A stretch of DNA of 64,000 nt from Candidatus Cloacimonadales bacterium (GCA_963663475.2 CAXXJV010000001.1:224001-288000); one strand, 5' to 3'; shown: positions 33,459 to 54,243, counted from the first letter of the stretch. Translations and numbers: made by a program. The notes: a model not told the origin generated them from the sequence alone.

Positions 33459-36245
33459 TTACTTTAAAAGTAACATTTTCTTGAATTCTATGTGCTTGCC
33501 TGCTTCCATCTTAGTGTAATATACACCTGAAGCAACTTCCTGATTTCTATTGTCCTTGCCATTCCATAATAAGTTAATTTTCTTATTTGGGGTTGCAACG
33601 AAATCATTAAACATTGTTTTGACTAATTGACCTTTAACATTATATATATTTATTTTAACATTACTTGGGTTAGTAACAGCGAAACTAATGTTAGTTGAAG
33701 GATTAAAGGGATTTGGGTAGTTTTCAAAAAGTTTTGTACCATAAAATACTTCTGGAGTATCATTACCATCTGGATCACCAATACTTACGATTGTAGGTCC
33801 AAACATTTCTGATTCATTAGACAGTTCGACTGTTTTTAACCAATAATAATATACAGTATTGTTTTGGACTTCTCCATCGACAAAACTATATGTATAAGTT
33901 TGTGAAGAATTGATTGAAGGAATCAATACAGGAATTTGATCAGCACTATCAACATCATTCATGGTATTTTTTAAGATATAATAACCTGTTAATGATGTTT
34001 CGGTCTCAACTGTCCATTGAATTTTAACTTGATTGTCAGAAACTAATACAGCATTAAAAGAAGAAAGTTCTACAGGGAGTGTTTGTTCCTCTCCTGTTAA
34101 TGGGAAACCACTGAGTGAAGATTCTGTTTCCACTGTTGTAGTAGAAGTTGTACCAATATAACTTTCTTCAAGAACATCACCACCAATAGTAGCTTCACTA
34201 TTAGCAGTCTCTTTAGTTGTAACTGTAAAGAAGTAATATTTATCATCTGTCGATACTGTAGTATTAAATCCACTAAAGGTTAAAACATCATTATAATTAG
34301 CTGATCCTCCCAACTGGATAGCTTTAGCCTTGCTTGGATCAAATGTTGTAGAGGAGCTTTCCCAAACTTTGAAGCCTGTACTCACTACATCATTTGATGT
34401 TAATGTACCAGTAAGTTTAAGTTTTAGACTTGTTAAAGCTGCTGTACCTTGATTAGTCTTTATATCTAATCTAAAGAAAGGAGCATCTGGACTTCCAGGA
34501 GCAATAGATGGGAAGTTATCAAAATAATTTAATATTAATGCTCGATATAAACATTTATCAGCAAAAACTCCTGGATTAAATGAACTAACTGTTCCTGAAG
34601 TTGTAATCAGAGCATCGTTAGTTGAGATTTCAATTCTGTCTGAATATGTTAAACCTGTAGAATTTAAGGAAACTGCTACAAAGTAATACTTATACTGGTC
34701 TGTAATACTCCTATTATTTATGGAGAAGTTGTAGGTTCCAGTACCTGTGAAAACTATCGGATTAGATATAGATGTCGCGCTTGAGAAGCTAGTTGTACTT
34801 GATTCATAAAGAGCAATATATGCTGCATCATCAGGATCAATAGTACCACTGACAACGATACCAAGATTAGAAAGATTAGCTGTACCAGAAGCTGTTTTCA
34901 AGCCTACATAGCCAATTGGTTGATAGTTACCTAAGTTATAACCTAATAAGGCAACACCTGAATTTATTTCATCTGCCACCGCATCTATGGTAATATTCTG
35001 GTTTAAATATTGGAATGAACCACTGGTTACTGATGTGTTTGTATTGCCAGCGATATCAACCATTTCCACTGAAAATCGATAGAATTCACTGGAATCCAAT
35101 ATATTCAAGCCAGAAACATCAGAGACACTAGCTGAACTAAGTAAATCAGCACCATCTAGGTTAATACTATTACTACCTGAAGAAAACGACCCAATAATAT
35201 CTATAGTTGAGATAACTGCATAAGTATCATTATCTTTGATATAAACAGTTATTCCCCCCGGAGCCGAGTCTTCACCTAAAGTAAAGTTAAGATTAAAACT
35301 AGATCCACTAGCAGAACTACCAGAAACTAAAGTTGGCTTTATGGCAGCATTGTCGTATATTAACTTATTCCATGGGGATGTCTCTTCGGGATTTCCTGTT
35401 TCATCTTGGTAACCAATCGCTAAATAGTATGTATTTAAATGTGTTAATGATGTACTACCTGTTACTGCTTCGATATGGGAAGAAGCTGTTGAAAAATTTG
35501 TTGCATCAAGAGTAATTTGATGCCTTGAAGTATTTTCATATGTACTAGCTAATGTAAGTGTTGTACTTGGAGAAGAACCATCTGAATTTGGTGAAAAGTA
35601 TAGTTTAACACTTCCTCCATTAGGAACTTCAGTAAGTTGAAAATCTATAAGTAAGCTGCTATTATCATAAGTAGCTACTGTAGGAGAGTTTGGACTGTAT
35701 AAAGTTGGCTCTAGTGTTTCCGTATCGTTAAATACTGTAAGATATGTAGAAAATCCAGTATCAGGGTTGCTGGCTGGAAGAATAGTATTATAATATGAAT
35801 CAACTTGGTAACTAGTATAAGATGAAGAATAATTACCTCTACTTGTATAAAGCTGTAAGCCAGCTTGAATTGATACTGCATTACTAGTGAAACTTCCGAT
35901 ATTAAATGTAGATGTCACATCAAAAGTACCATTAGCCGAATTAGAGTCAAAAGGAATATTATAAAAGCTTTCATCTTGCCAAGAACCCTCATCTGGCGTA
36001 GAACTACCATAAAAAATTAGCAAAATATTATTATCATTCCCATCAAAAGAATATCCTTGAATATTCTCCCTGCTTAATCCTGAAACTGTATAGTTTATCT
36101 GTAACGTAATTTCTTCATTTTCAGAAATATCATAATCACCTGCACCATTTTCACCTTGCATTCCAATCGAGTTTATAGTGATAGTCTGAGCAACCACTAT
36201 ATATGCTATAGATATAAAAAACATGGTTAAAATTATTTTTTTCAT
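33459..36245 (-). CDS. Secreted Ser/Thr-rich beta-sandwich repeat protein with TLPVELSSF module and FlgD-Ig/T9SS-like C-terminal domain
   Basis: Signal peptide; TLPVELSSF...WTVETE; NYPNPFNPSTNI...WNGKD...ASGVYY. Confidence 0.8.
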   Translation of the reverse strand: MKKIILTMFFISIAYIVVAQTITINSIGMQGENGAGDYDISENEEITLQINYTVSGLSRENIQGYSFDGNDNNILLIFYGSSTPDEGSWQDESFYNIPFDSNSANGTFDVTSTFNIGSFTSNAVSIQAGLQLYTSRGNYSSSYTSYQVDSYYNTILPASNPDTGFSTYLTVFNDTETLEPTLYSPNSPTVATYDNSSLLIDFQLTEVPNGGSVKLYFSPNSDGSSPSTTLTLASTYENTSRHQITLDATNFSTASSHIEAVTGSTSLTHLNTYYLAIGYQDETGNPEETSPWNKLIYDNAAIKPTLVSGSSASGSSFNLNFTLGEDSAPGGITVYIKDNDTYAVISTIDIIGSFSSGSNSINLDGADLLSSASVSDVSGLNILDSSEFYRFSVEMVDIAGNTNTSVTSGSFQYLNQNITIDAVADEINSGVALLGYNLGNYQPIGYVGLKTASGTANLSNLGIVVSGTIDPDDAAYIALYESSTTSFSSATSISNPIVFTGTGTYNFSINNRSITDQYKYYFVAVSLNSTGLTYSDRIEISTNDALITTSGTVSSFNPGVFADKCLYRALILNYFDNFPSIAPGSPDAPFFRLDIKTNQGTAALTSLKLKLTGTLTSNDVVSTGFKVWESSSTTFDPSKAKAIQLGGSANYNDVLTFSGFNTTVSTDDKYYFFTVTTKETANSEATIGGDVLEESYIGTTSTTTVETESSLSGFPLTGEEQTLPVELSSFNAVLVSDNQVKIQWTVETETSLTGYYILKNTMNDVDSADQIPVLIPSINSSQTYTYSFVDGEVQNNTVYYYWLKTVELSNESEMFGPTIVSIGDPDGNDTPEVFYGTKLFENYPNPFNPSTNISFAVTNPSNVKINIYNVKGQLVKTMFNDFVATPNKKINLLWNGKDNRNQEVASGVYYTKMEAGKHIEFKKMLLLK

Positions 36246-45050: not shown

Positions 45051-47387
45051 TCAATCTGAAAAACTCTCAATATTAAACTCAACAGTTACTACTTCTGAAG
45101 GTTGCATGCCTACTCTATATGCTCTTGCTTTTACAGTTGTTGTTTCAGAGATAATAAAAGAACCCATATATTGATTAGAAGCTAAATTTGGAATACTGCC
45201 ATCTAAAGTATAATAGATATCTGACCTGCTAGAACCACTAGTCATCGAGATTGTTTGCTCAGATTCATAGCTTCCTGAATCAGGAGAAATTATTGGAATA
45301 GGGGTTACTTCAAAAAGAGTATTCTTAAGTCGTCTAACAAGGCGAAAACCTAAGTGAGTTAAGGTACTATTATCTTGCGAGGCATTTAAACGACGAGTTA
45401 ACTTACAATCATTAGCATTATTGTGAAAGCCACCTCCACGTAGAATACGGACAAAGCCACTATTTGGACCAAGGGGATCAATCTGCGCTTCAGGACTATA
45501 TTCTGCCACTACATCATAACACCACTCAAAGACATTACCCGCCATATCATAAAGACCTAACTCATTTGGTAATTTTCTACCTATTGAGTGTGTTGAACTC
45601 CCTGAATTATCATCATACCAAGCATAGTCTGATAATTGAGCTTCGTTATCTGTACCTGCCCATTGATTATATCCACTAGCATGACTTTCATTTCCCCCTT
45701 TTGCAGCAAACATCCATTCCATCTCGGTAGGTAAACGATAGCCATTAGCATCAAAATCGCATTGCCAGTTACTTGTATCATAACAAGGAGTTAAGCCTTC
45801 CTCAATACTAATGGCATTACAGTAAGTAACAGCATCCTCCCAAGAAACTTTTTCTACAGGTTTGTTTAAACCAATTGAGTTACTGGGATTTTCTCCCATG
45901 ACAGCTTCATATTCTCCCTGAGTAACTTCATACTTACTCATAATAAAGGAAGAAACAGAGATATCAGCATAACCATTATAGAAGGTTCCGCCTTCTACTA
46001 AAACGAAGTTTTCTGGCATTATTTCAATTTCATATTCAATAGTTATAATTTCTGATGGTTGCCAACCGACTCTATAAGCACGAGCTTTAACTGTTGTTGT
46101 TTCAGAGAGAGTAAAAGGACCAGTATAATGTGTGGACATTGAGCTTGGTTCACTACCATCTAAAGTATAATAGATATCGGATCTACCTGAGTCACTAGTC
46201 ATTGTGATTGTTTGTTCTGTTTCATAGAAACCTGCTTGAGGTGAGACTTGTGGTCTAGGAGTAATTTCAATCTGAGTTTCTTCTATTCGACGAACTATAC
46301 GGAAACCAATGCCATAATTAGAAGCAGAAGGCGGTAAAGGGAAAAAACCTGTAATTTTGGTAGAAAATGCAAGAGCACTAAAAAATCCTCCTTTACAAGC
46401 TCTACCTTGACCAGTCAAAGGACCCACAGGGTCAACTTGTGAATAACCTTCACTATAATCTCCAAAAACATCCCAACACCATTCGTTTATGTTACCAGAC
46501 ATATCATATAAACCAAGAGCATTAGGTAGTTTGAGTCCTACTTGGTGAGCCATACTTTCTGAATTATCTACATACCAAGCATACTGAGTTAACTGTGCTT
46601 CATTATTAGTTCCAGCCCAAGCATCATAGTCCGTAGCATCAGTTTGATCACCACCTTTACCAGCATATAGCCACTCTCTTAAAGTTGGTAAACGATAACC
46701 ACTCGCATTAATATCTAAATTATAGTTTTCATGATTGCTTGTAAGGTTCCACCCCTCAGACCAGTTATCAGGATTAGCTCCTTCATTGTTATAGTCATAA
46801 CATGGCGTAAGTCCTTCTTGCATAGATCGAATGTTACAGTATTTGACAGCATCAAACCAAGAAACAAAATATACTGGATAAGCATTGCCAATAGCAAAAG
46901 TATGAACTGGATTTACACCCATCACAGCTTCATATTCGCCTTGGGTAATCTCGTACTTATCCATAAAAAATGTAGAAATTGTAGTATCATAACCTTCTTC
47001 ATAGAAGACACCTCCATTTACTTTCGTGAATGAAAGAAAATTATCATCATCTTCAAGAGGATTATCACGAGCAATGAGTTTAACTTGAAAGTTATTGCCT
47101 GCTTCAATATTATCAGAGAGGTAGTTCCATACAATTTGCTTTCTTCCACCTGGGATAATGTTGCTTCCAACATGACCAGAAAGAGTTGTTGGATAAATAC
47201 TGAATGTAGAGCCACCATCATCGGAGGCAATCACCATTACCTGACATTGTCCATCAGCATCTAATTGGTAATTGATATAGACATTTACAGAATCAGAGGT
47301 GATACCTATGTTACTTATAGTTGGAACAAGTGAGAAAAGGCAAGTTAATGTTATTACAAAGAGTGTTAATATAGTATATTTTTTCAT
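45051..47387 (-). CDS. Secreted protein: N-terminal Ig-like domain + 2 FGE-sulfatase (SUMF1/CLec-fold) domains + 2 CHB/HEX C-terminal domains
   Basis: KYE.TQ..Y, GYRLPT..EW, N.LGLYDM.GN..EWC, GG...GFR motifs twice; IYYTLDGS.P spacers; no sorting domain. Confidence 0.88.
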   Translation of the reverse strand: MKKYTILTLFVITLTCLFSLVPTISNIGITSDSVNVYINYQLDADGQCQVMVIASDDGGSTFSIYPTTLSGHVGSNIIPGGRKQIVWNYLSDNIEAGNNFQVKLIARDNPLEDDDNFLSFTKVNGGVFYEEGYDTTISTFFMDKYEITQGEYEAVMGVNPVHTFAIGNAYPVYFVSWFDAVKYCNIRSMQEGLTPCYDYNNEGANPDNWSEGWNLTSNHENYNLDINASGYRLPTLREWLYAGKGGDQTDATDYDAWAGTNNEAQLTQYAWYVDNSESMAHQVGLKLPNALGLYDMSGNINEWCWDVFGDYSEGYSQVDPVGPLTGQGRACKGGFFSALAFSTKITGFFPLPPSASNYGIGFRIVRRIEETQIEITPRPQVSPQAGFYETEQTITMTSDSGRSDIYYTLDGSEPSSMSTHYTGPFTLSETTTVKARAYRVGWQPSEIITIEYEIEIMPENFVLVEGGTFYNGYADISVSSFIMSKYEVTQGEYEAVMGENPSNSIGLNKPVEKVSWEDAVTYCNAISIEEGLTPCYDTSNWQCDFDANGYRLPTEMEWMFAAKGGNESHASGYNQWAGTDNEAQLSDYAWYDDNSGSSTHSIGRKLPNELGLYDMAGNVFEWCYDVVAEYSPEAQIDPLGPNSGFVRILRGGGFHNNANDCKLTRRLNASQDNSTLTHLGFRLVRRLKNTLFEVTPIPIISPDSGSYESEQTISMTSGSSRSDIYYTLDGSIPNLASNQYMGSFIISETTTVKARAYRVGMQPSEVVTVEFNIESFSD

Positions 47388-47395
47388 GCTATCCC

Positions 47396-48112
47396 CTATT
47401 TCAAAAGAAGTACTTTACTGGTTTTGGAATAAGTAGCAGATTTCATTTTGATAAAGTAAATACCATTACTGCATGCTTTTCCATAGTTATCTAAACCATT
47501 CCATTTTATTGTATGGTCTCCTGCTAAAATCTTATTTTTCCTTACTAACTGCCCTTTAAGATTATAAATACTCAAATCACTTACTTCGTTCTCTTTTACT
47601 CTGACACAAATATTTGTTGAATTACTTCCATTAAAAGGATTAGGATATATTGAAACAAGCTCTGTTGAATTAGGAAGAGAAGGAACATCTCCTTCATCAT
47701 CTATTCGGACATTTACTGGTCCATGAAAGTTAGTGCCATTATATTCAATACTTTGTAGCCAATAATAATAATTTGTGTCTAATTCAACCGCATTATCAAT
47801 ATAAGAATAATTATGGGTTAATGAAGTATTATAAGCAGGAATAATTGTTGAGGATATGATATTTGCCAAGTTTAGATCAGCTACTTCCGCTCTATGAATA
47901 TGATAACCTATCATATCTTGTTCAGATTCACTAGTCCATTTAATATCTACAGTTTGGTTAGAAATATTAGGTATCGCCATAAAAGAAGATAGTGTTACAG
48001 GTAAAGTCTCATCACTAATTGAAAAAGTTGGCGAAATAGTAAAACCTGTTAAAGAATACAATAGTCCAGAATTTAACATCACAGAAATCAACATAATCAA
48101 AACTTGTTTCAT
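47396..48112 (-). CDS. Small secreted protein: signal peptide + short strand + TLPVTLSSF module + FlgD-Ig/T9SS-like C-terminal domain
   Basis: Start moved to ATG 48112 (AGGGAG RBS) giving 238 aa, same length as paralog 52821-53537; IYPNPF...WNG.D..G....NGIYFIKM. Confidence 0.85.
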   Translation of the reverse strand: MKQVLIMLISVMLNSGLLYSLTGFTISPTFSISDETLPVTLSSFMAIPNISNQTVDIKWTSESEQDMIGYHIHRAEVADLNLANIISSTIIPAYNTSLTHNYSYIDNAVELDTNYYYWLQSIEYNGTNFHGPVNVRIDDEGDVPSLPNSTELVSIYPNPFNGSNSTNICVRVKENEVSDLSIYNLKGQLVRKNKILAGDHTIKWNGLDNYGKACSNGIYFIKMKSATYSKTSKVLLLK

Positions 48113-48339
48113 TTGTAACTCCCTACTAAAGTTATTTGTATTTAACTTATATTTATAATTTTGCAATTGTTGTCAAGTTCTTATTCTTGATTATGTAATT
48201 ATTTTACCCAGAGACTGCTCAACCACCAATAATAAAGACAGAAGGATTAAAATTATTTATCACATTTCCCACTCTACTTAGGAGAGAACTCTATTTTACT
48301 TCACAAAAATTACAGAGAAAAAACTATATTCTCCTCTCT

Positions 48340-48420
48340 TCATCCATAATCCTTCCTTTACAGTCTTTCGATGAAAGTCCCAGTTTCATCGAAAGACTGT
48401 AAAGGAAGGATTATGGATGA
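48340..48420. repeat. Long perfect palindrome (37-bp arms)
   Basis: tcatccataatccttcctttacagtctttcgatgaaa-N7-tttcatcgaaagactgtaaaggaaggattatggatga. Confidence 0.85.
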
Positions 48421-48490
48421 TAAGGCTATTGATAAGACCGATGTTCCTTAACCATAGGTAAGGAAGGTCGGGTAAAAAAGGCTCAAGTTC

Positions 48491-48703
48491 AACCCGAATA
48501 GTGCATTTGAACTTTGATGAGGAGTGCTAGATTCTTTTAGCAAAATAAGTTACAGAATTTTGACGCATATAATTTTTATATTCGGAGAAATTAGGATCTT
48601 ACTTTTGCAGAAGAATATTCTGCTATTCACAAAGGTCTCCTGCATTATTTGGGTTGAAGAAGAATATTCTGCTATTCACAAAGGTCTCCTGCATTATTGG
48701 GTT
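48491..48703 (+). mobile_element. MITE copy with tandemly duplicated right end
   Basis: acccgaatagtgca...ctgcattatttgggt; last ~47 bp repeated at 48658-48703. Confidence 0.8.
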
Positions 48704-51700
48704 TAATCCATATTTGAGCGAACCAAACGAATCCCTATCTTAGGAAGTAAGTAATGAGGAAATCCTGAATAACGTCTAGTAATAACCATATTATATGGTG
48801 GTGAATTCCAATCTCCTCCTCTATATACCCTTTTTGGCCCATAGTCAGGTCCAATCGGATTAACCGCAGTTTCGTCAGCAAAGTTTTCATAATAATTCGT
48901 TTGATACCTGTCATAACACCATTCACCTACATTACCAGACATATCATAAAGACCTAACTGATTAGCAGCTTTTAAGCCTGATGGGTGGCTTGACTCATTA
49001 CTATTATCAGAATACCAGGCTATATAATCGACTTCGTTTGAGCCAGAGTAAAGGTAATTAGGTGTCATAGAAGCACCTCTCGCAGCATATTCCCATTCTG
49101 CTTCAGTGGGTAATCTATAGCCATTAGCTGTAAAGTCACATGAGTAATCTGTTAAATCATAGCAAGGAGTAAGTTCTTCAGCAATACTTTTAGCGTTACA
49201 GTAACTAAGTGCTTCTTGCCAAGTAATGTTATCAAGTGGTAAGGAAAAATCATGGTGAGATGATGGGTCAACTTGCATGACTTGATAATAGTCAGCCAAA
49301 GATACTTCAAATTTACTTATATAAAAGGAGTTTAATTGAACTTCATGAGTAGGTTCTTCATCAATTAATCCTCCATAAGGAGCTCCCATTGTGAAGCTCC
49401 CTGAAGGGACATAAACAAAGTCTTGATTTTCAGCAAAATTATATTCATAAGTTAATATTTCAGAGGCTAAAAAGCTATATTCAAAAGCTCTTGCTTTCAC
49501 ACTAGTATCAACAGAGATATAGAAGGGGTCAGTATAGAGGAAAGAATCTCTATCAGGTTCGCTGCCATCGATTGTGAAATAGATCTCAGCATTTTCGTGT
49601 TCACTAGACATAGTAATAGTCTGAACTGAATCATAGTCTCCTCCTAGAGGGCTAATAATCGGATTAGGAGTTGTTTCAGGAATAACAAAAGCTAACGATC
49701 TAGCTAGACGGAAGCCAACATTGTTTATTCTATTAGAAGGTAAAGTAGCTTGGCGATGTAGAACTGTACAATAAGAGACACCTGTATTCCATGCTCCACC
49801 TCTAGTTATTCTATCTTCACCTGTTTCTGCTCCCCATGGATTTAACTGAGGTCCAGGAGGATAATCCCCATAGATATCCCAGGTCCACTCATAAACATTA
49901 CCAGACATATCATACAGGCCTAAAGCATTAGGTTCTAAGAGGCCTACTGGTTTTGTTCCATTAGGAGTATTATTAAAGCTATTCCAACAACCTCCACTTA
50001 TATTATCATAACCCCAAGTAGGAGTTTGATTTCCCCCCTTTGCAGCATACATCCACTCCATTTCAGTTGGAAGCCTATATCCATTAGCTATAAAATCACA
50101 GTTAACATTTTCGTGATTTATTGCAGAGTTCCAACCTGTTGGCCAGTTATCAGGATTAACTCCACTATCACCAACACTATAACAAGGAGTAAGGCCATCT
50201 TGAATAGAACGAATATTGCAAAATTTAATTGCATCAAACCAAGATACCATATAGACAGGAAAATCTGGGTCTATTCCATAAGATTGAACAATTTCAGAAG
50301 GATTATTTCCCATTACTGCTTCATATTCACCTTGAGTAATTTCATATCTATTGATAAAGAAGTTACTAATTGTAATATCTGATGTCCCATTATAAAAACT
50401 TCCACCTTCTATAGATACAAAGTCATTCACAAGTAATTCAATTTCGTAGTCAGCAGAAACTATTTCTGAATATTTTAATCCTTCTTTATAGGCTCTAGCT
50501 TTAACACTTGTAGTTTCGTAAATAGTAAAAGGCTGGTCATAGTGTTCAGACCCCATATTTGGGTCGCTACCATCAAGAGTGTAGTAAATTTCTATATCAG
50601 GGTATTGACTGGATAAAGTTATAGTTTTTGGTATTCTATAGGAATCAGCATCTGGAGAAATATCGGGAGAATCAGTAGGAGAAAGATGAGTGTATCCAAG
50701 CTTTCTAACTGTTCTAAAGCCAATTGAGAAATTACTAGCATCAGGAGTTTCTTGATTCCTAATCATTAACTTAGTATTTGCTGCTGAGTTCAACCAAGAA
50801 CCACCACGATATATACGGTTAATTGCTATTGAACCACCCTGAGGATCTTCTTGAGCCTCACTAGTATAATCTGCATGCTTATCCCAACACCATTCTGCAA
50901 CATTACCTGCCATATCATAAAGTCCTAATTGATTTGGTGTTTTACTTCCTACCGAATGGGTTTGTCCTGAAGCATTAGAATTATACCAGGCATAGTTTCC
51001 TACTTGGGAACTTTCATTAGTACCTGGCCAATCATTAAAATCTACTGGAGGACTAGCAAGTCCACCTTTAGCAGCAAACATCCACTCCATCTCAGTTGGC
51101 AAACGATAACCATTAGCAGCAAAGTTACAGCGATAACGAGATTCATTATTCACTAGATCCCAACCTTGAGACCAGTTATTAGGGTCTGTTCCTTCTCGAT
51201 TATAATCATAACAAGGCTCTAAACCTCTTTCTATAGACTTCAAATTGCAATACTTAACAGCTTCAAACCAACTTACCTGGTCCACAGGTTTATCATCTCC
51301 AGCAAAACTACTCGGATTTGCTCCCATAAGACTTGTATAGTCTGCCTGATTAACTTCGTACTTATTTATATAGAAGGGAGTAATAGCTACATCACCACTT
51401 CCATTGAAAAAACTTCCCCCTTCAAGATAAACAAAGTCAGCTTCAATAACTTCTATTTCTATGTCACTAGTTACAATTTCAGACTGTTTCCAGCCTTGTT
51501 TATAAGCTCTTGCCTTAATTGTTGTAGTTTCAGATATTTCAAAAGGACTGGTATATTTTGTAGAAGTTAGGTCTGGATCTGAACCATCTAAAGTATAGTA
51601 AATTTCAGGTCTTCCCTGTCCCCCATAAAAAGAAATAGTTTGAGCTTGATAATAAAGACCACTAGCAGGACTAATACTTGGATTTGCTACTGCCTGCAAA

Positions 51701-52812
51701 GGAGTAGATTCAATCCCACGAGCTAATCTAAAAGATAGGAAAGGATATTCATTTGATAAACTATAGTAGAATCTATTCGAGACAGAACAGTTTTCTGAAG
51801 AACTACCAAAATCTCCTCCTCTAGCTGTCTTAAAACCACCATTACTTGGTCCTGTAGGATTATCCTGAGCAATATTAGGATAGATTTCTTGCCAAAAGTC
51901 CTGACACCATTCAATTGCATTTCCACTCATATCATAAAGGCCAAGCTCATTTGCTTCTTTTTGTCCTACATCTTTAGTTCCATAGTTGCTATCGGTATTA
52001 TTCTCCTCATACCAAGCATAATCTGATAACTCACCTTGATTATTGGTTCCTGCCCATTGGTTATAGTTGTGAGGACTATTATGATTTCCTCCTTTAGCAG
52101 CAAACATCCATTCCATCTCGGTTGGAAGTCGATAACCATTAGCTTGATAGTCACAATCTAACAAAGAATAATTATTGATTTCAGCTGGCCAATTATCTGG
52201 ATCAGACCCATAAGCACCATACGCGTAACAGGGGGTTAAATCTTCCATTAGAGACCTTGTGTTACAGTATTTAATAGTATCTAACCATTTAACTAAAATT
52301 ACAGGTTTTGTCTCACCTATGAAATCTTGACTCGGATTATAACCCATTACAGCTTCAAATTCACTCTGAGTCATTTCATACTTATCAATAAAGAAGTCAC
52401 TTAGACTTATATCAGCTCTTCCGTTATGAAAAAATCCTCCCTCAACCTTTGTAAAAGAAAGAAAATTATTCTCATCATCAAGCGGGTTATCTCGGGCTAT
52501 TATCTTTATCTGAAAATTATCTCCTGCCTGAATATTATCAGCTGCATAGTTCCAAACAATTTGCTTTCTACCTCCAGGAGACACATTAGCACCTATTGAA
52601 CCTGACAGGTTTCTAGGATATATTTTAAAAGAATTACCCCCATCATTAGAGGCAACAATTGAAACATGACAAGAATTAGCAGAACTTAAACTATAATTAA
52701 TATATACATTTACAGAATCAGAACTTATACCTATTCGTGAAACTTCTGGTACTGTTGAAAAGAGCAGGCTAAAACTTAAAAAAAAGAGGCTTATAATAAA
52801 ATATTTCTTCAT
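48703..52812 (-). CDS. Secreted protein: N-terminal Ig-like domain + 4 FGE-sulfatase (SUMF1/CLec-fold) domains separated by 3 CHB/HEX C-terminal domains
   Basis: Four GYRLPTE.EW / LGLYDM.GN..EW / RGG repeats; paralog of 45051-47387; no sorting domain. Confidence 0.88.
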   Translation of the reverse strand: MKKYFIISLFFLSFSLLFSTVPEVSRIGISSDSVNVYINYSLSSANSCHVSIVASNDGGNSFKIYPRNLSGSIGANVSPGGRKQIVWNYAADNIQAGDNFQIKIIARDNPLDDENNFLSFTKVEGGFFHNGRADISLSDFFIDKYEMTQSEFEAVMGYNPSQDFIGETKPVILVKWLDTIKYCNTRSLMEDLTPCYAYGAYGSDPDNWPAEINNYSLLDCDYQANGYRLPTEMEWMFAAKGGNHNSPHNYNQWAGTNNQGELSDYAWYEENNTDSNYGTKDVGQKEANELGLYDMSGNAIEWCQDFWQEIYPNIAQDNPTGPSNGGFKTARGGDFGSSSENCSVSNRFYYSLSNEYPFLSFRLARGIESTPLQAVANPSISPASGLYYQAQTISFYGGQGRPEIYYTLDGSDPDLTSTKYTSPFEISETTTIKARAYKQGWKQSEIVTSDIEIEVIEADFVYLEGGSFFNGSGDVAITPFYINKYEVNQADYTSLMGANPSSFAGDDKPVDQVSWFEAVKYCNLKSIERGLEPCYDYNREGTDPNNWSQGWDLVNNESRYRCNFAANGYRLPTEMEWMFAAKGGLASPPVDFNDWPGTNESSQVGNYAWYNSNASGQTHSVGSKTPNQLGLYDMAGNVAEWCWDKHADYTSEAQEDPQGGSIAINRIYRGGSWLNSAANTKLMIRNQETPDASNFSIGFRTVRKLGYTHLSPTDSPDISPDADSYRIPKTITLSSQYPDIEIYYTLDGSDPNMGSEHYDQPFTIYETTSVKARAYKEGLKYSEIVSADYEIELLVNDFVSIEGGSFYNGTSDITISNFFINRYEITQGEYEAVMGNNPSEIVQSYGIDPDFPVYMVSWFDAIKFCNIRSIQDGLTPCYSVGDSGVNPDNWPTGWNSAINHENVNCDFIANGYRLPTEMEWMYAAKGGNQTPTWGYDNISGGCWNSFNNTPNGTKPVGLLEPNALGLYDMSGNVYEWTWDIYGDYPPGPQLNPWGAETGEDRITRGGAWNTGVSYCTVLHRQATLPSNRINNVGFRLARSLAFVIPETTPNPIISPLGGDYDSVQTITMSSEHENAEIYFTIDGSEPDRDSFLYTDPFYISVDTSVKARAFEYSFLASEILTYEYNFAENQDFVYVPSGSFTMGAPYGGLIDEEPTHEVQLNSFYISKFEVSLADYYQVMQVDPSSHHDFSLPLDNITWQEALSYCNAKSIAEELTPCYDLTDYSCDFTANGYRLPTEAEWEYAARGASMTPNYLYSGSNEVDYIAWYSDNSNESSHPSGLKAANQLGLYDMSGNVGEWCYDRYQTNYYENFADETAVNPIGPDYGPKRVYRGGDWNSPPYNMVITRRYSGFPHYLLPKIGIRLVRSNMD

Positions 52813-52820
52813 TTTCTCTC

Positions 52821-53537
52821 CTATTTTAAGAGCAATATCTTGCTAATTTTACTATATGTTGGAGACTTCATTTTAATGAAATAAACCCCATTACTACACT
52901 TTCTACCTGCATCATCATAACCATTCCAGTCTAGCCTATGATTCCCAGAATTAATTGTTCTTTTCTGAACTACCTGTCCCTTTAGATTATAAATAGTTAG
53001 AGTACTTGTTTCATTTTCCTTCACCTTTACTTCAATATTTGCAGAAATATTAGCATGGAATGGATTAGGATAAATGGAAACTAATTCTGTACTTTCAGGT
53101 AGAGGACTTACGTCTTGGTCATTTTCTATCTTTACGCTTATAGGTCCAAAGAAATTACTCCCACTATAATCAACACTTTGTAACCAGTAATAATAATTAA
53201 TTTCTGTCTCTAGCTCAAAATCCTGATACATATAATCATTAGATAAGGCAGAGTTTTGACCAGGAATTATTGAAGGTGTTATTATAATAGCTTGGGAAAG
53301 ACTAGGTTCTTGCCCTCGATGAAGGTGATAACCAATTAAATTCATCTCTGATTCACTTGTCCAATTGATAGTAATACTTTGATTATCAGAATTTGCCATT
53401 GCATAAAAAGCAGACAAGGTAACTGGAAGTGTTTCATCAGTTATTGAAAATATAGGTGAAAGAGAAAAGCCTGTAAAAGCATTTACTAATGTAAAATTTA
53501 CAATTAATATAGCTAAAATAATTAAAATCTTCTTCAT
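52821..53537 (-). CDS. Small secreted protein: signal peptide + short strand + TLPVTLSAF module + FlgD-Ig/T9SS-like C-terminal domain
   Basis: 238 aa paralog of 47396-48112; IYPNPF...WNGYDDAG..CSNGVYFIKM. Confidence 0.85.
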   Translation of the reverse strand: MKKILIILAILIVNFTLVNAFTGFSLSPIFSITDETLPVTLSAFYAMANSDNQSITINWTSESEMNLIGYHLHRGQEPSLSQAIIITPSIIPGQNSALSNDYMYQDFELETEINYYYWLQSVDYSGSNFFGPISVKIENDQDVSPLPESTELVSIYPNPFHANISANIEVKVKENETSTLTIYNLKGQVVQKRTINSGNHRLDWNGYDDAGRKCSNGVYFIKMKSPTYSKISKILLLK

Positions 53538-53654
53538 TTTTACCCCACGTAATATTATAGTCTGCTAATATTTATTACTTTGATAAGATATGTCAAGTTT
53601 TTTAATAAAATAAATAATATTCATTGAGTAAAAGTGTTTATTAAGCTAGTGGTT

Positions 53655-53821
53655 AACTCAGATAGTGTAGTAGAGCTTTAGTGAAGAGTGCATATTATTC
53701 TAGAAAAATAGCTTACAGAATTTTGACACATATATTTTATATATTCGGAGAAATTATGGATCTTGCTTTTGAAGAAGAATATTCTGCTATTCACAAAGGC
53801 CTTCTGCATTGTTTTGGGATT
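53655..53821 (+). mobile_element. MITE copy
   Basis: actcagatagtgtagtag...ctgcattgttttgggat with conserved core. Confidence 0.8.
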
Positions 53822-53960
53822 AAATATGGATCAAGTTCAAGTCTGGTGGAAATTATGTTACATTATTTTGCACTAGATATTGTTGTATTACAGTAGTTTA
53901 CTGATTATTAGTTACTATTGATAGTATTATTTTAGCAGAATAAGATATAATCCTGAAAGG

Positions 53961-54076
53961 ATAGGTCTTATATCCCCAGAGGGGATTAATAGATTAGCCC
54001 AGGGTAAAATCCTAAAGGGATTGCAACCCTGGGTTATGATTCATATAAAAAGTATCACCCTGTAAGGGTTTAATAA
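53961..54076 (-). repeat. REP-like element (cccagggttgc...accctgggc family)
   Basis: Diverged reverse-complement of 12344-12462 and 15001-15117. Confidence 0.7.
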
Positions 54077-54192
54077 AAACATATATATCAAAGACTTATT
54101 ATATTACCTTGTTACCATTATATTAACCCATTACAGGGTTCCCATACAGGGTTAGGTCGTAATTTTGGATATTCCCCTTAATTATGATATGA

Positions 54193-54221
54193 GAAAAGCG
54201 GAGATTAATCTCCGCTTTTTC
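54193..54221 (-). terminator. groEL intrinsic terminator
   Basis: aaaagcggagat-ta-atctccgctttt hairpin just past the stop codon. Confidence 0.7.
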
Positions 54222-54243
54222 TTATATTTTACTAAAGTCTTTT

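Follow-up and report, generated by a model that had tools for sequence, protein, structure and literature searches.

In chaperone-usher pili, which employ PapD/FimC chaperones and the N-terminal extensions of pilins, the exchanged strand runs antiparallel to strand F in the final state. Type A substrates of the T9SS (type IX secretion system) are anchored by PorU/PorV/PorZ according to three papers (PMC5445135, PMC8545088, PMC11285876), the last of which also reports T9SS genes for the phylum of the bacterium considered here. The T9SS translocates folded proteins, and hitchhiker (piggy-back) export of folded complexes occurs in the Tat pathway and in peroxisomal import, as stated in a further paper (PMC9251779). 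Here we analyze a two-gene module that is present twice, at positions 45051-53537, in a stretch of 64,000 nucleotides from a Candidatus Cloacimonadales bacterium (GCA_963663475.2 CAXXJV010000001.1:224001-288000), hereinafter the window, from the first letter of which positions are counted. Gene 1 of the module encodes a small protein with a T9SS sorting domain (the adaptor) and gene 2 encodes a larger protein that lacks such a domain (the cargo). Judging from homologous sequences and structural models, the module appears to encode an immunoglobulin (Ig)-like domain, of the Fn3-like, Asp-box kind, that is split between the two genes. The mechanism that we favor on balance, albeit with clear reserve, is that the two proteins form a heterodimer through this split domain and that the cargo is thereby exported piggy-back by the T9SS and displayed on the cell surface.

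All four open reading frames (ORFs) of the duplicated module, and hence all features described below for them, are on the minus strand. In the first copy, gene 1a (adaptor; 52821-53537, 238 amino acids), which is delineated by the ORF list, domain matches and family alignment, is separated by 8 nt (52813-52820) from gene 2a (cargo; 48703-52812, 1369 amino acids), for which the ORF list, domain matches and a structural model are available. In the second copy, gene 1b (adaptor; 47396-48112, 238 amino acids from the ATG at 48112) is separated, again by 8 nt (47388-47395), from gene 2b (cargo; 45051-47387, 778 amino acids). The ORF list and both gap sequences agree with the original prediction, made from the DNA sequence of the window, that the same two-gene module occurs twice with 8-nt gaps; the length of 238 amino acids that it gave for gene 1 in both copies holds for gene 1b from the ATG at 48112, an alternative start being the TTG at 48166 (47396-48166, 256 amino acids, with 18 additional residues). 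In both copies, a purine-rich stretch resembling a ribosome-binding site overlaps the stop codon of gene 1 (TAGGAG and TAGGGG, respectively). The two adaptors are 57% identical over 238 amino acids without gaps and the two cargo proteins are 50% identical over 797 aligned positions, with 64% identity in their first 125 residues. The genome of origin (3.3 Mb in two contigs, 99.24% complete, 4578 ORFs) encodes this Ig-like domain in genes 2a and 2b alone, and the nearest named homologues of gene 1 carry the source labels Cloacimonetes or Cloacimonadota.

The cargo proteins start with a signal peptide, followed by the Ig-like domain without strand G and by four domains of the FGE-sulfatase fold and three CHB_HEX_C domains in gene 2a, or two FGE-fold and two CHB_HEX_C domains in gene 2b. 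The acceptor Ig-like domain occupies residues 20-108 both in gene 2a (strands A-F; 52489-52755), as delineated by the model and the homologues, and in gene 2b (47064-47330), as delineated by the alignment of the copies and by domain matches. The N-terminal ~90 residues of the mature gene 2 product (P0001) match no Pfam family and fold as a beta sandwich in the model. When residues 20-368 of gene 2a, comprising the Ig-like domain and the first FGE domain (Ig-FGE1), were modelled alone with 40 aligned sequences, the mean predicted confidence (pLDDT) was 90.6, and strands were found at fragment residues 4-12, 16-24, 29-36, 50-52, 55-58, 61-69 and 82-89. The Ig part of this model (pLDDT 82-96) comprises strands A-F and then passes, through a linker of pLDDT 65, into the FGE domain, in agreement with the earlier proposal that a conserved Ig-like domain reaches the first FGE domain after a short linker.

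The homologues of the Ig-like domain indicate what is missing. A search of 1.84 billion representative sequences yielded 534 relatives at E <= 0.001, the best of which are very large proteins in which the domain is repeated in tandem up to 28 times. The period of these arrays is ~100-116 amino acids, compared with a match of ~90 amino acids, and the 12-19 residues between strand F of one copy and strand A of the next carry a motif like that of the adaptor peptide (the cis segment; G.GES..FA[VI].NN.LPV in P0110, to be compared with LTGFGESP.FEISD.TLPV in the adaptors). In a model of four repeats of another such protein (P0124; pLDDT 84.3, with the repeats at ~90), the cis segment forms a strand in all four repeats (154-157, 263-266, 373-376 and 482-485), each time immediately ahead of strand A of the following repeat. 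In the top 150 representatives, another Ig match comes next after 210 of the Ig matches, and the cis segment is seen in the sampled listing of these; at all 43 junctions between Ig and FGE domains the cis segment is absent, the FGE match beginning at most 30 residues on without the motif. The claim that the Ig-like domain of the cargo ends at its F strand and is incomplete alone is thus upheld by the predicted A-F topology, by the extra strand of the tandem homologues and by the lack of this segment at every junction with an FGE domain; and, as had been suggested for the adaptor peptide, the strand that completes the tandem homologues in cis carries the same motif. A hidden Markov model (HMM) of the peptide gave 11 matches in P0110, 10 of them directly after an Ig match, and none in the shuffled sequence. 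Conversely, for an HMM built from 197 cis segments alone, the N-terminal peptide was the best match in 20 of 29 adaptor relatives, and also in 3 more relatives that are N-terminally truncated. Searches of the PDB by sequence returned one match of the Ig-like domain at chance level (E 0.031), no solved relative of the Asp-box Ig kind and, for P0135, ordinary Fn3 domains that matched its N-terminal part alone. The fold search with the Ig part recovered generic Fn3-like and E-set domains (Z ~6-7), a result that is neutral with respect to the missing strand.

The candidate donor of this strand is found at the mature N-terminus of the adaptor. Residues 1-20 of gene 1a (53478-53537) form a putative signal peptide of the typical n-h-c pattern, as judged by eye, with cleavage expected after VNA under the -3/-1 rule. 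The proposed trans G strand comprises residues 21-35, FTGFSLSPIFSITDE (53433-53477), to which residues 21-35 of gene 1b, LTGFTISPTFSISDE (48008-48052), correspond in the alignment of the copies and in that of the family. The peptide is followed in gene 1a by a spacer (residues 36-154; 53076-53432) that consists of the TLPVTLS motif and an Fn3-like domain and makes no contact in the model of the complex described below, and by a T9SS type A sorting domain (residues 155-238; 52824-53075). The latter is the single recognised domain of gene 1 in Pfam and NCBIfam: genes 1a and 1b match PF18962 with 39.1 and 36.1 bits (cut-off 27) and TIGR04183 with 45.6 and 46.6 bits (cut-off 23), over residues 155-235 of 238 and overlapping FlgD_ig. 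By these profile matches, the adaptor qualifies as a genuine sorting-domain protein of type A. Both the absence of a catalytic or cargo domain from gene 1 and the order of a short conserved peptide after the signal peptide and then TLPVTLS are as originally described, the quoted sequences reading the same; of the 'FlgD-Ig/T9SS-like' sorting domain, the assignment as a sorting domain stands and the wording is narrowed to T9SS type A, the matches being over the cut-offs.

Among 30 aligned members of the adaptor family (consensus of the peptide LTGFxESPxFxIxD), the residues T22, G23, F24, F30 and I32 do not vary or are at least 90% conserved. All adaptor variants retain the signal peptide as well as the LTGF..S peptide and the sorting domain. 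In three variants of 131-150 amino acids in related genomes, the signal peptide and the peptide are joined to the sorting domain by just a short linker, without the Fn3-like spacer; in two variants, additional domains separate the peptide from the cassette that is made up of spacer and sorting domain; and in one type, found in two genomes, the peptide is present in triplicate, in tandem (L008 1851-2684 in genome G014, and L063 in genome G061), the repeats preceding a TLPVELSSF motif. Such a triplicated adaptor would permit three cargo molecules per anchor. The cassette (~205 amino acids, TLPVTLS spacer plus sorting domain) also ends 18 larger ORFs of the genome of origin (stop-to-stop frames of 466-1775 amino acids), and the gene-1 copies alone have it preceded by just a signal peptide and 15 residues. 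One of the larger cassette ORFs (TLPV.LSSF, Fn3-like domain and sorting domain) is located in the window at 33459-36245 on the minus strand, and the other 17 are elsewhere in the genome. Four large proteins contain, just before the cassette, a conserved stretch, ...GSKVT.[ST]GL.[ST]FS.F, that resembles the adaptor peptide.

A model of the complex was obtained for Ig-FGE1 of gene 2a and residues 21-150 of gene 1a, with our own alignments supplied for both chains. The median interface score (ipSAE) was 0.78 (0.83, 0.00 and 0.78 in the three runs), compared with 0.32, 0.00 and 0.00 for three controls in which either the partner or chain 1 was an unrelated protein. Of solved complexes, 58 of 80 reach the mark, as do 2 of 110 mismatched pairs, counts that are approximate for the present case because the alignments were our own. 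The pLDDT of the partner was at least 69. On the adaptor side, the interface consists of residues 21-35 alone; the residue pairs with the least predicted error (88:22, 87:23, 86:24, 84:26, 82:29 and 81:31) place the peptide antiparallel to strand F, in the position of strand G. On the cargo side, the interface comprises fragment residues 1-14, 17, 19, 21 and 75-89, and strands A and B, as well as residue 100 and residues 129-149 of the FGE domain, are also contacted. The predicted docking of residues 21-35 along strand F, at 0.78 against 0.32 for the best control, is in line with the proposal that the peptide docks as an edge strand; the model argues for binding without demonstrating it. We consider it likely that the adaptor peptide binds the cargo in the modelled manner.

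The association of the two genes across genomes points in the same direction. In the genome of origin, a crude pattern of the LTGF type near a signal peptide picks 7 ORFs, of which the two that look secreted are both copies of gene 1, the other five being membrane-protein-like by eye; given that the peptide and the Ig-like domain each occur exactly twice in this genome and are paired, their association is more than a matter of chance. The first 60 residues of the adaptor were turned into a profile and searched against 121 genomes from the order and 201 from the phylum, and 39 N-terminal peptide matches were examined (29 from the 121-genome search and 10 new ones from the 201-genome search). 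In all 37 cases where downstream DNA is available, the gene immediately downstream encodes the Ig-like domain, with or without FGE domains, and the other two matches are at contig ends. These 37 linked peptide genes come from 28 genomes of four families in one order. At E <= 1e-8, 23 of these 201 phylum genomes matched the adaptor profile; they all belong to four families within that one order, and among the 23 genomes of families f14-f17 there was no match. The Ig-like domain was found in 22 of 41 related genomes. In the forward direction, of 44 Ig-containing ORFs at the loci retrieved, 16 directly follow a gene that starts with a signal peptide and an LTGF-type peptide, and a further 9 are preceded by a member of a second, donor-like homologous family, so that the linkage of cargo to peptide-bearing partners that had been anticipated is apparent in both directions.

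Several points weigh against the split-domain mechanism or limit its reach. The 28 genomes are kin, so that 37 of 37 does not represent independent events. The similarity between the peptide and the cis strand is that of a short motif, and the statistical tests of it are mixed: the peptide HMM matched weakly in most tandem proteins other than P0110; when all 4578 ORFs of the genome were searched with a general cis-strand HMM, gene 1b ranked 192 of 273 and gene 1a was not listed; and with a subtype cis-strand HMM neither gene 1a nor gene 1b was among the 12 best matches listed. Because the motif is too short, the genome-wide test with these HMMs was dropped. The model of the complex covers pair a, and the binding was predicted in one job in which one of three runs gave 0.00. 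Models of this type are inclined to place a peptide that favors strands along an unoccupied edge strand. Recall of the donor-strand complexes that have been solved for pilins may also add to the score, these complexes not being sequence relatives as far as tested by the PDB sequence searches.

These points bear most directly on the possibility that the two proteins make no contact and are merely co-transcribed surface or periplasmic proteins, LTGF serving signal processing or the fold of the adaptor and the modelled interface being an edge-strand artefact. Consistent with this possibility are the run at 0.00 and a run-to-run agreement of contacts of at least 0%, the resemblance of LTGF to a lipobox with F in place of C, and the similar TG..FS.F stretch before the cassette in the four larger paralogues. 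A peptide without a partner would not, however, be expected from the linkage in 37 of 37 cases, from the controls at 0.32, 0.00 and 0.00, or from the presence of the same motif as a cis strand in homologous domains; furthermore, the peptide is kept in the adaptors from which the Fn3-like domain is absent and is therefore not part of that fold. Altogether, the absence of contact appears quite unlikely.

If strand completion in trans is accepted, as we prefer, the question is whether the pair is an export device. Other observations that count against the full mechanism come from the Ig-containing genes that are not paired with an adaptor of the gene-1 type (class 1). The remaining ORFs of the 44 have no visible donor and yet also lack strand G; these donorless Ig-FGE genes include genes linked to diversity-generating retroelements (DGRs) and second genes of tandem pairs. 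At the C-termini of single-FGE proteins, whether partnered or unpartnered, no cis strand G was found. The open edge of the Ig fold may thus be tolerated, or more types of donor may exist. Given the Ig-FGE genes without a class-1 donor, the T9SS cannot be the general route for these proteins, and the unpartnered genes suggest that T9SS display is one use among others of the strand-completion principle. A third architecture was observed in L017, L018, L024, L025 and L042, where the Ig-like domain is at residues ~183-310 of proteins of 536-968 amino acids; Ig-FGE does not adjoin the signal peptide there but comes after a conserved domain of ~180 amino acids (with motifs such as W.YTA.P and WDLDN), and no upstream donor gene was seen in these loci.

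The second donor-like family consists of proteins of 253-459 amino acids with a signal peptide, the N-terminal motif L[IT]G[YE]G.S...x.xDT.NP and Ig-like domains that start with PNGGE.W. Its members are at L016 7188-7961, L019 2165-2941, L020 2442-3266, L021 1242-2426, L023 1531-2979, L030 2513-3655, L033 1085-2287, L036 2733-3968 and L037 1727-2935. Pfam and NCBIfam searches of these proteins returned sub-threshold matches to Big_7 and Kre9_KNH alone, with no sorting domain and no recognised anchor. From their sequences, these proteins may be putative strand donors with another kind of anchor.

The nine Ig-FGE genes that are preceded by such a donor-like protein without sorting domain or recognised anchor speak for the possibility that the peptide completes the Ig-like domain without the pair serving for export, the adaptor being instead a folding cofactor, a stabiliser or a docking partner in the periplasm or on the surface, while the cargo travels otherwise or stays in the periplasm. 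The literature is compatible with such a role as well, in that full-text searches found no precedent for T9SS piggy-back export; such searches, supplementary files being outside their scope, also found no description of a split adaptor/cargo system, so that the statement in the original prediction that none was known still stands. On the other hand, class-1 adaptors keep the sorting domain in every variant, even in the minimal ones of 131-150 amino acids, and export of the adaptor is therefore hard to call irrelevant; the cargo has a Sec signal peptide and no lipobox (copy a) and no other sorting signal. We regard a role unrelated to export as rather unlikely.

T9SS machinery is present in the genome of origin. 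PorU (571.6 bits) and SprA (sprA at 1089911-1094245 of contig 1) are found above the cut-offs, and a PorV-like protein is detected at 139.6 bits (E 1.3e-40), below the cut-off of 250; no match to GldK/PorK above the curated cut-off was found in this genome. The best GldK candidates are two ORFs of the FGE fold with N- and C-terminal GldK matches, at 1087897-1088598 of contig 1, adjoining sprA, and at 1027331-1028044. In the mechanism that we prefer, both proteins, having signal peptides, would reach the periplasm via Sec; the adaptor peptide would insert antiparallel to strand F, as modelled, and complete the Ig sandwich of the cargo, giving a stable, non-covalent heterodimer. By analogy with type A substrates, the C-terminal domain of the adaptor would then carry the pair across the T9SS translocon and the PorU sortase would fix the adaptor on the cell surface, the spacer presumably keeping the cargo, devoid of a sorting domain, off the membrane. 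Thus, piggy-back export and surface display of the cargo may follow from the sorting domain of the adaptor and the presence of the T9SS.

With regard to the nature of the cargo, Pfam and NCBIfam searches of genes 2a and 2b returned no match to a sorting domain, which agrees with the earlier description of gene 2 as a protein with a signal peptide and without such a domain. The FGE-sulfatase family PF03781 is matched with 514.5 bits over four stretches in gene 2a and with 240.2 bits over two stretches in gene 2b (cut-off 23.3), and the equivalog models for the enzymes EgtB, PvdO, SenA and OvoA are all far below their cut-offs on gene 2. The best match in the fold search with the first FGE domain is the DGR variable protein TvpA (2y3c; Z 33.5, root-mean-square deviation 2.1, 245 aligned residues, 34% identity), followed by CarF, PorK in PorKN (9mzu; Z 25.4, root-mean-square deviation 2.7, 221 aligned residues) and PvdO. 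Given the proximity to TvpA, the enzyme models below the cut-offs and the DGR targets in relatives, the cargo is most likely, as far as sequence and model allow, a multivalent binding protein, adhesin or receptor rather than an enzyme.

The similarity to PorK raises the alternative that gene 2 encodes a PorK/GldK/GldJ-like structural part of the T9SS on which gene 1, as a substrate or accessory, docks. The resemblance of the FGE fold to that of PorK in PorKN, together with the lack of any GldK match above the cut-off in the whole genome, would accommodate this role; against it, TIGR03525 gives 239.7 bits (five stretches summed) and 105.5 bits, compared with a cut-off of 350, the signal peptide of gene 2a has no lipoprotein cysteine, the closest fold is that of a DGR variable protein, the number of copies and of domains differs between close relatives, and there are better GldK-like candidates elsewhere, including the one that adjoins sprA. 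Membership of the cargo among the PorK/GldK ring lipoproteins was accordingly rejected on the scores below the TIGR03525 cut-off and on the missing cysteine in gene 2a, and a structural role in the T9SS is very unlikely.

In two relatives, Ig-FGE genes of a subtype without a class-1 adaptor (L041 4658-7501 in G040 and L031 2945-5500 in G001) have a bAvd-like gene and a reverse transcriptase directly downstream. A repeat pair of 124 nt with 85% identity in L041 (5650-5773 and 7296-7419) joins the 3' end of the gene and a template-like copy inside the annotated reverse transcriptase ORF. As judged from this gene order and repeat, the L041 and L031 genes are targets of DGRs. Near the cargo genes of the window, there is no reverse transcriptase, the nearest RVT_1 match in the genome being at 196728-197357 of the contig, outside the window, and no template-like repeat was found; assignment of the cargo itself to the DGR variable proteins was therefore rejected.

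The constraints on the sequences argue for a functional module. Gene 1b, compared with its orthologue, has a ratio of nonsynonymous to synonymous substitution rates (dN/dS) of 0.19; for gene 2b, a gapped alignment, which supersedes an ungapped value of 0.60, gives 0.38 over the first 625 codons and 0.26 for the Ig part; by these estimates, both genes are under purifying selection. A decaying, functionless remnant of a rearranged fused gene could be imagined from the fact that the cassette of spacer and sorting domain is normally the C-terminal end of large proteins. Such a remnant would not be expected to have reading frames intact across 28 genomes of four families or dN/dS values of 0.19 and 0.38; moreover, the adaptor has its own signal peptide and is located upstream, not downstream, of the cargo, and a simple break of a gene therefore cannot yield this arrangement. 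Contigs from an RNA library are also present on all four genes, although this is weak evidence: in run X1, eight small contigs with 0-2 differences cover parts of all four genes, no contig spans any of the gene junctions and carry-over of DNA is possible, so that co-transcription is not claimed. Altogether, decay is an extremely improbable explanation. The scan for promoters and terminators was uninformative, with 45 promoter-like sites compared with 40.9 expected and 5 terminator-like sites compared with 4.5 expected.

The intergenic regions upstream of gene 1b (48113-48702) and gene 1a (53538-54243) contain dispersed repeats and together give 829 BLAST pieces across the genome of origin. An element at ~48485-48659 has 141 copies of at least 130 nt in this genome, a long hairpin at ~48332-48428 has merely sub-threshold matches to models of plant miRNA precursors, and the depth in DNA run X2 is up ~90-fold over these regions. 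From their sequence, these repeats look like a family of miniature inverted-repeat transposable element-like or regulatory repeats.

The preferred mechanism, in which the adaptor completes the Ig-like domain of the cargo and carries it through the T9SS, would have several implications. The 15-residue tag occurs on minimal anchors, in triplicate and, in a donor-like form, on a second family without a sorting domain, which suggests that it is modular and that it represents a general docking code for binding proteins of the FGE/C-type-lectin fold, some of them diversified by DGRs, in this order. That the split Fn3-like domain is a natural pair of tag and catcher providing a general route for T9SS display of proteins without sorting domains is a tentative proposal, to which we give somewhat less than even weight. 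Should the mechanism be correct, sorting domains alone could not predict the cargo of the T9SS, because proteins without them could arrive at the cell surface when a split domain is completed together with an adaptor; the T9SS would thereby have its first hitchhiker route, and donor-strand complementation would have a use other than in pili. The cellular placement of a large family of Ig-FGE binding proteins, from a phylum that is little studied and for the most part uncultured, would be accounted for as well, and the small natural pair of peptide and domain would be a non-covalent docking tool.

Comparison with described systems places the module between several of them. With the DGR variable proteins such as TvpA (2y3c), the cargo shares the best structural match of its first FGE domain, and Ig-FGE genes in two relatives are DGR targets; the cargo genes of the window differ in having no reverse transcriptase or template repeat nearby. 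The type V pili of Bacteroidia (FimA/Mfa1), from the same superphylum, likewise rely on the exchange of strands among secreted proteins, but their subunits are lipoprotein precursors that polymerise after proteolysis, whereas no lipobox, protease step or polymer is indicated here. The likeness to chaperone-usher pili is that an Ig-like fold without a G strand is predicted to be completed in trans by the N-terminal extension of a secreted partner, the modelled strand being antiparallel to F as in the exchanged (final) state of the pilus. In contrast to these pili, we expect a 1:1 pair of adaptor and cargo, or possibly 3:1 with the triplicated peptide, and there is no hint of polymerisation; the acceptor, an Asp-box domain of the Fn3-like kind, has homologues that are complete in cis, and the donor bears a T9SS sorting domain. 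Given that, in addition to the lack of any sign of a polymer, the 99.24%-complete genome gave no match to the PapD-like chaperone PF00345 (a control search matched E. coli) or to the outer-membrane usher PF00577, the module is not a member of the chaperone-usher class.

The other half of the comparison concerns export. As in T9SS type A substrates, the C-terminal domain of the adaptor matches the profiles above curated cut-offs, and the genome encodes PorU, SprA and a PorV-like protein; unlike the known substrates, in which cargo and sorting domain are on one chain, the module has them on two chains, and the adaptor has no functional domain of its own. As in hitchhiker export, a subunit without the relevant signal is proposed to ride on a signal-bearing partner through a translocon for folded proteins; the differences are that the translocon would be that of the outer-membrane T9SS and that the coupling would be the completion of a split domain rather than an ordinary subunit interface. 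The donor-strand principle itself is known, and it is the setting of T9SS adaptor and cargo that is new.

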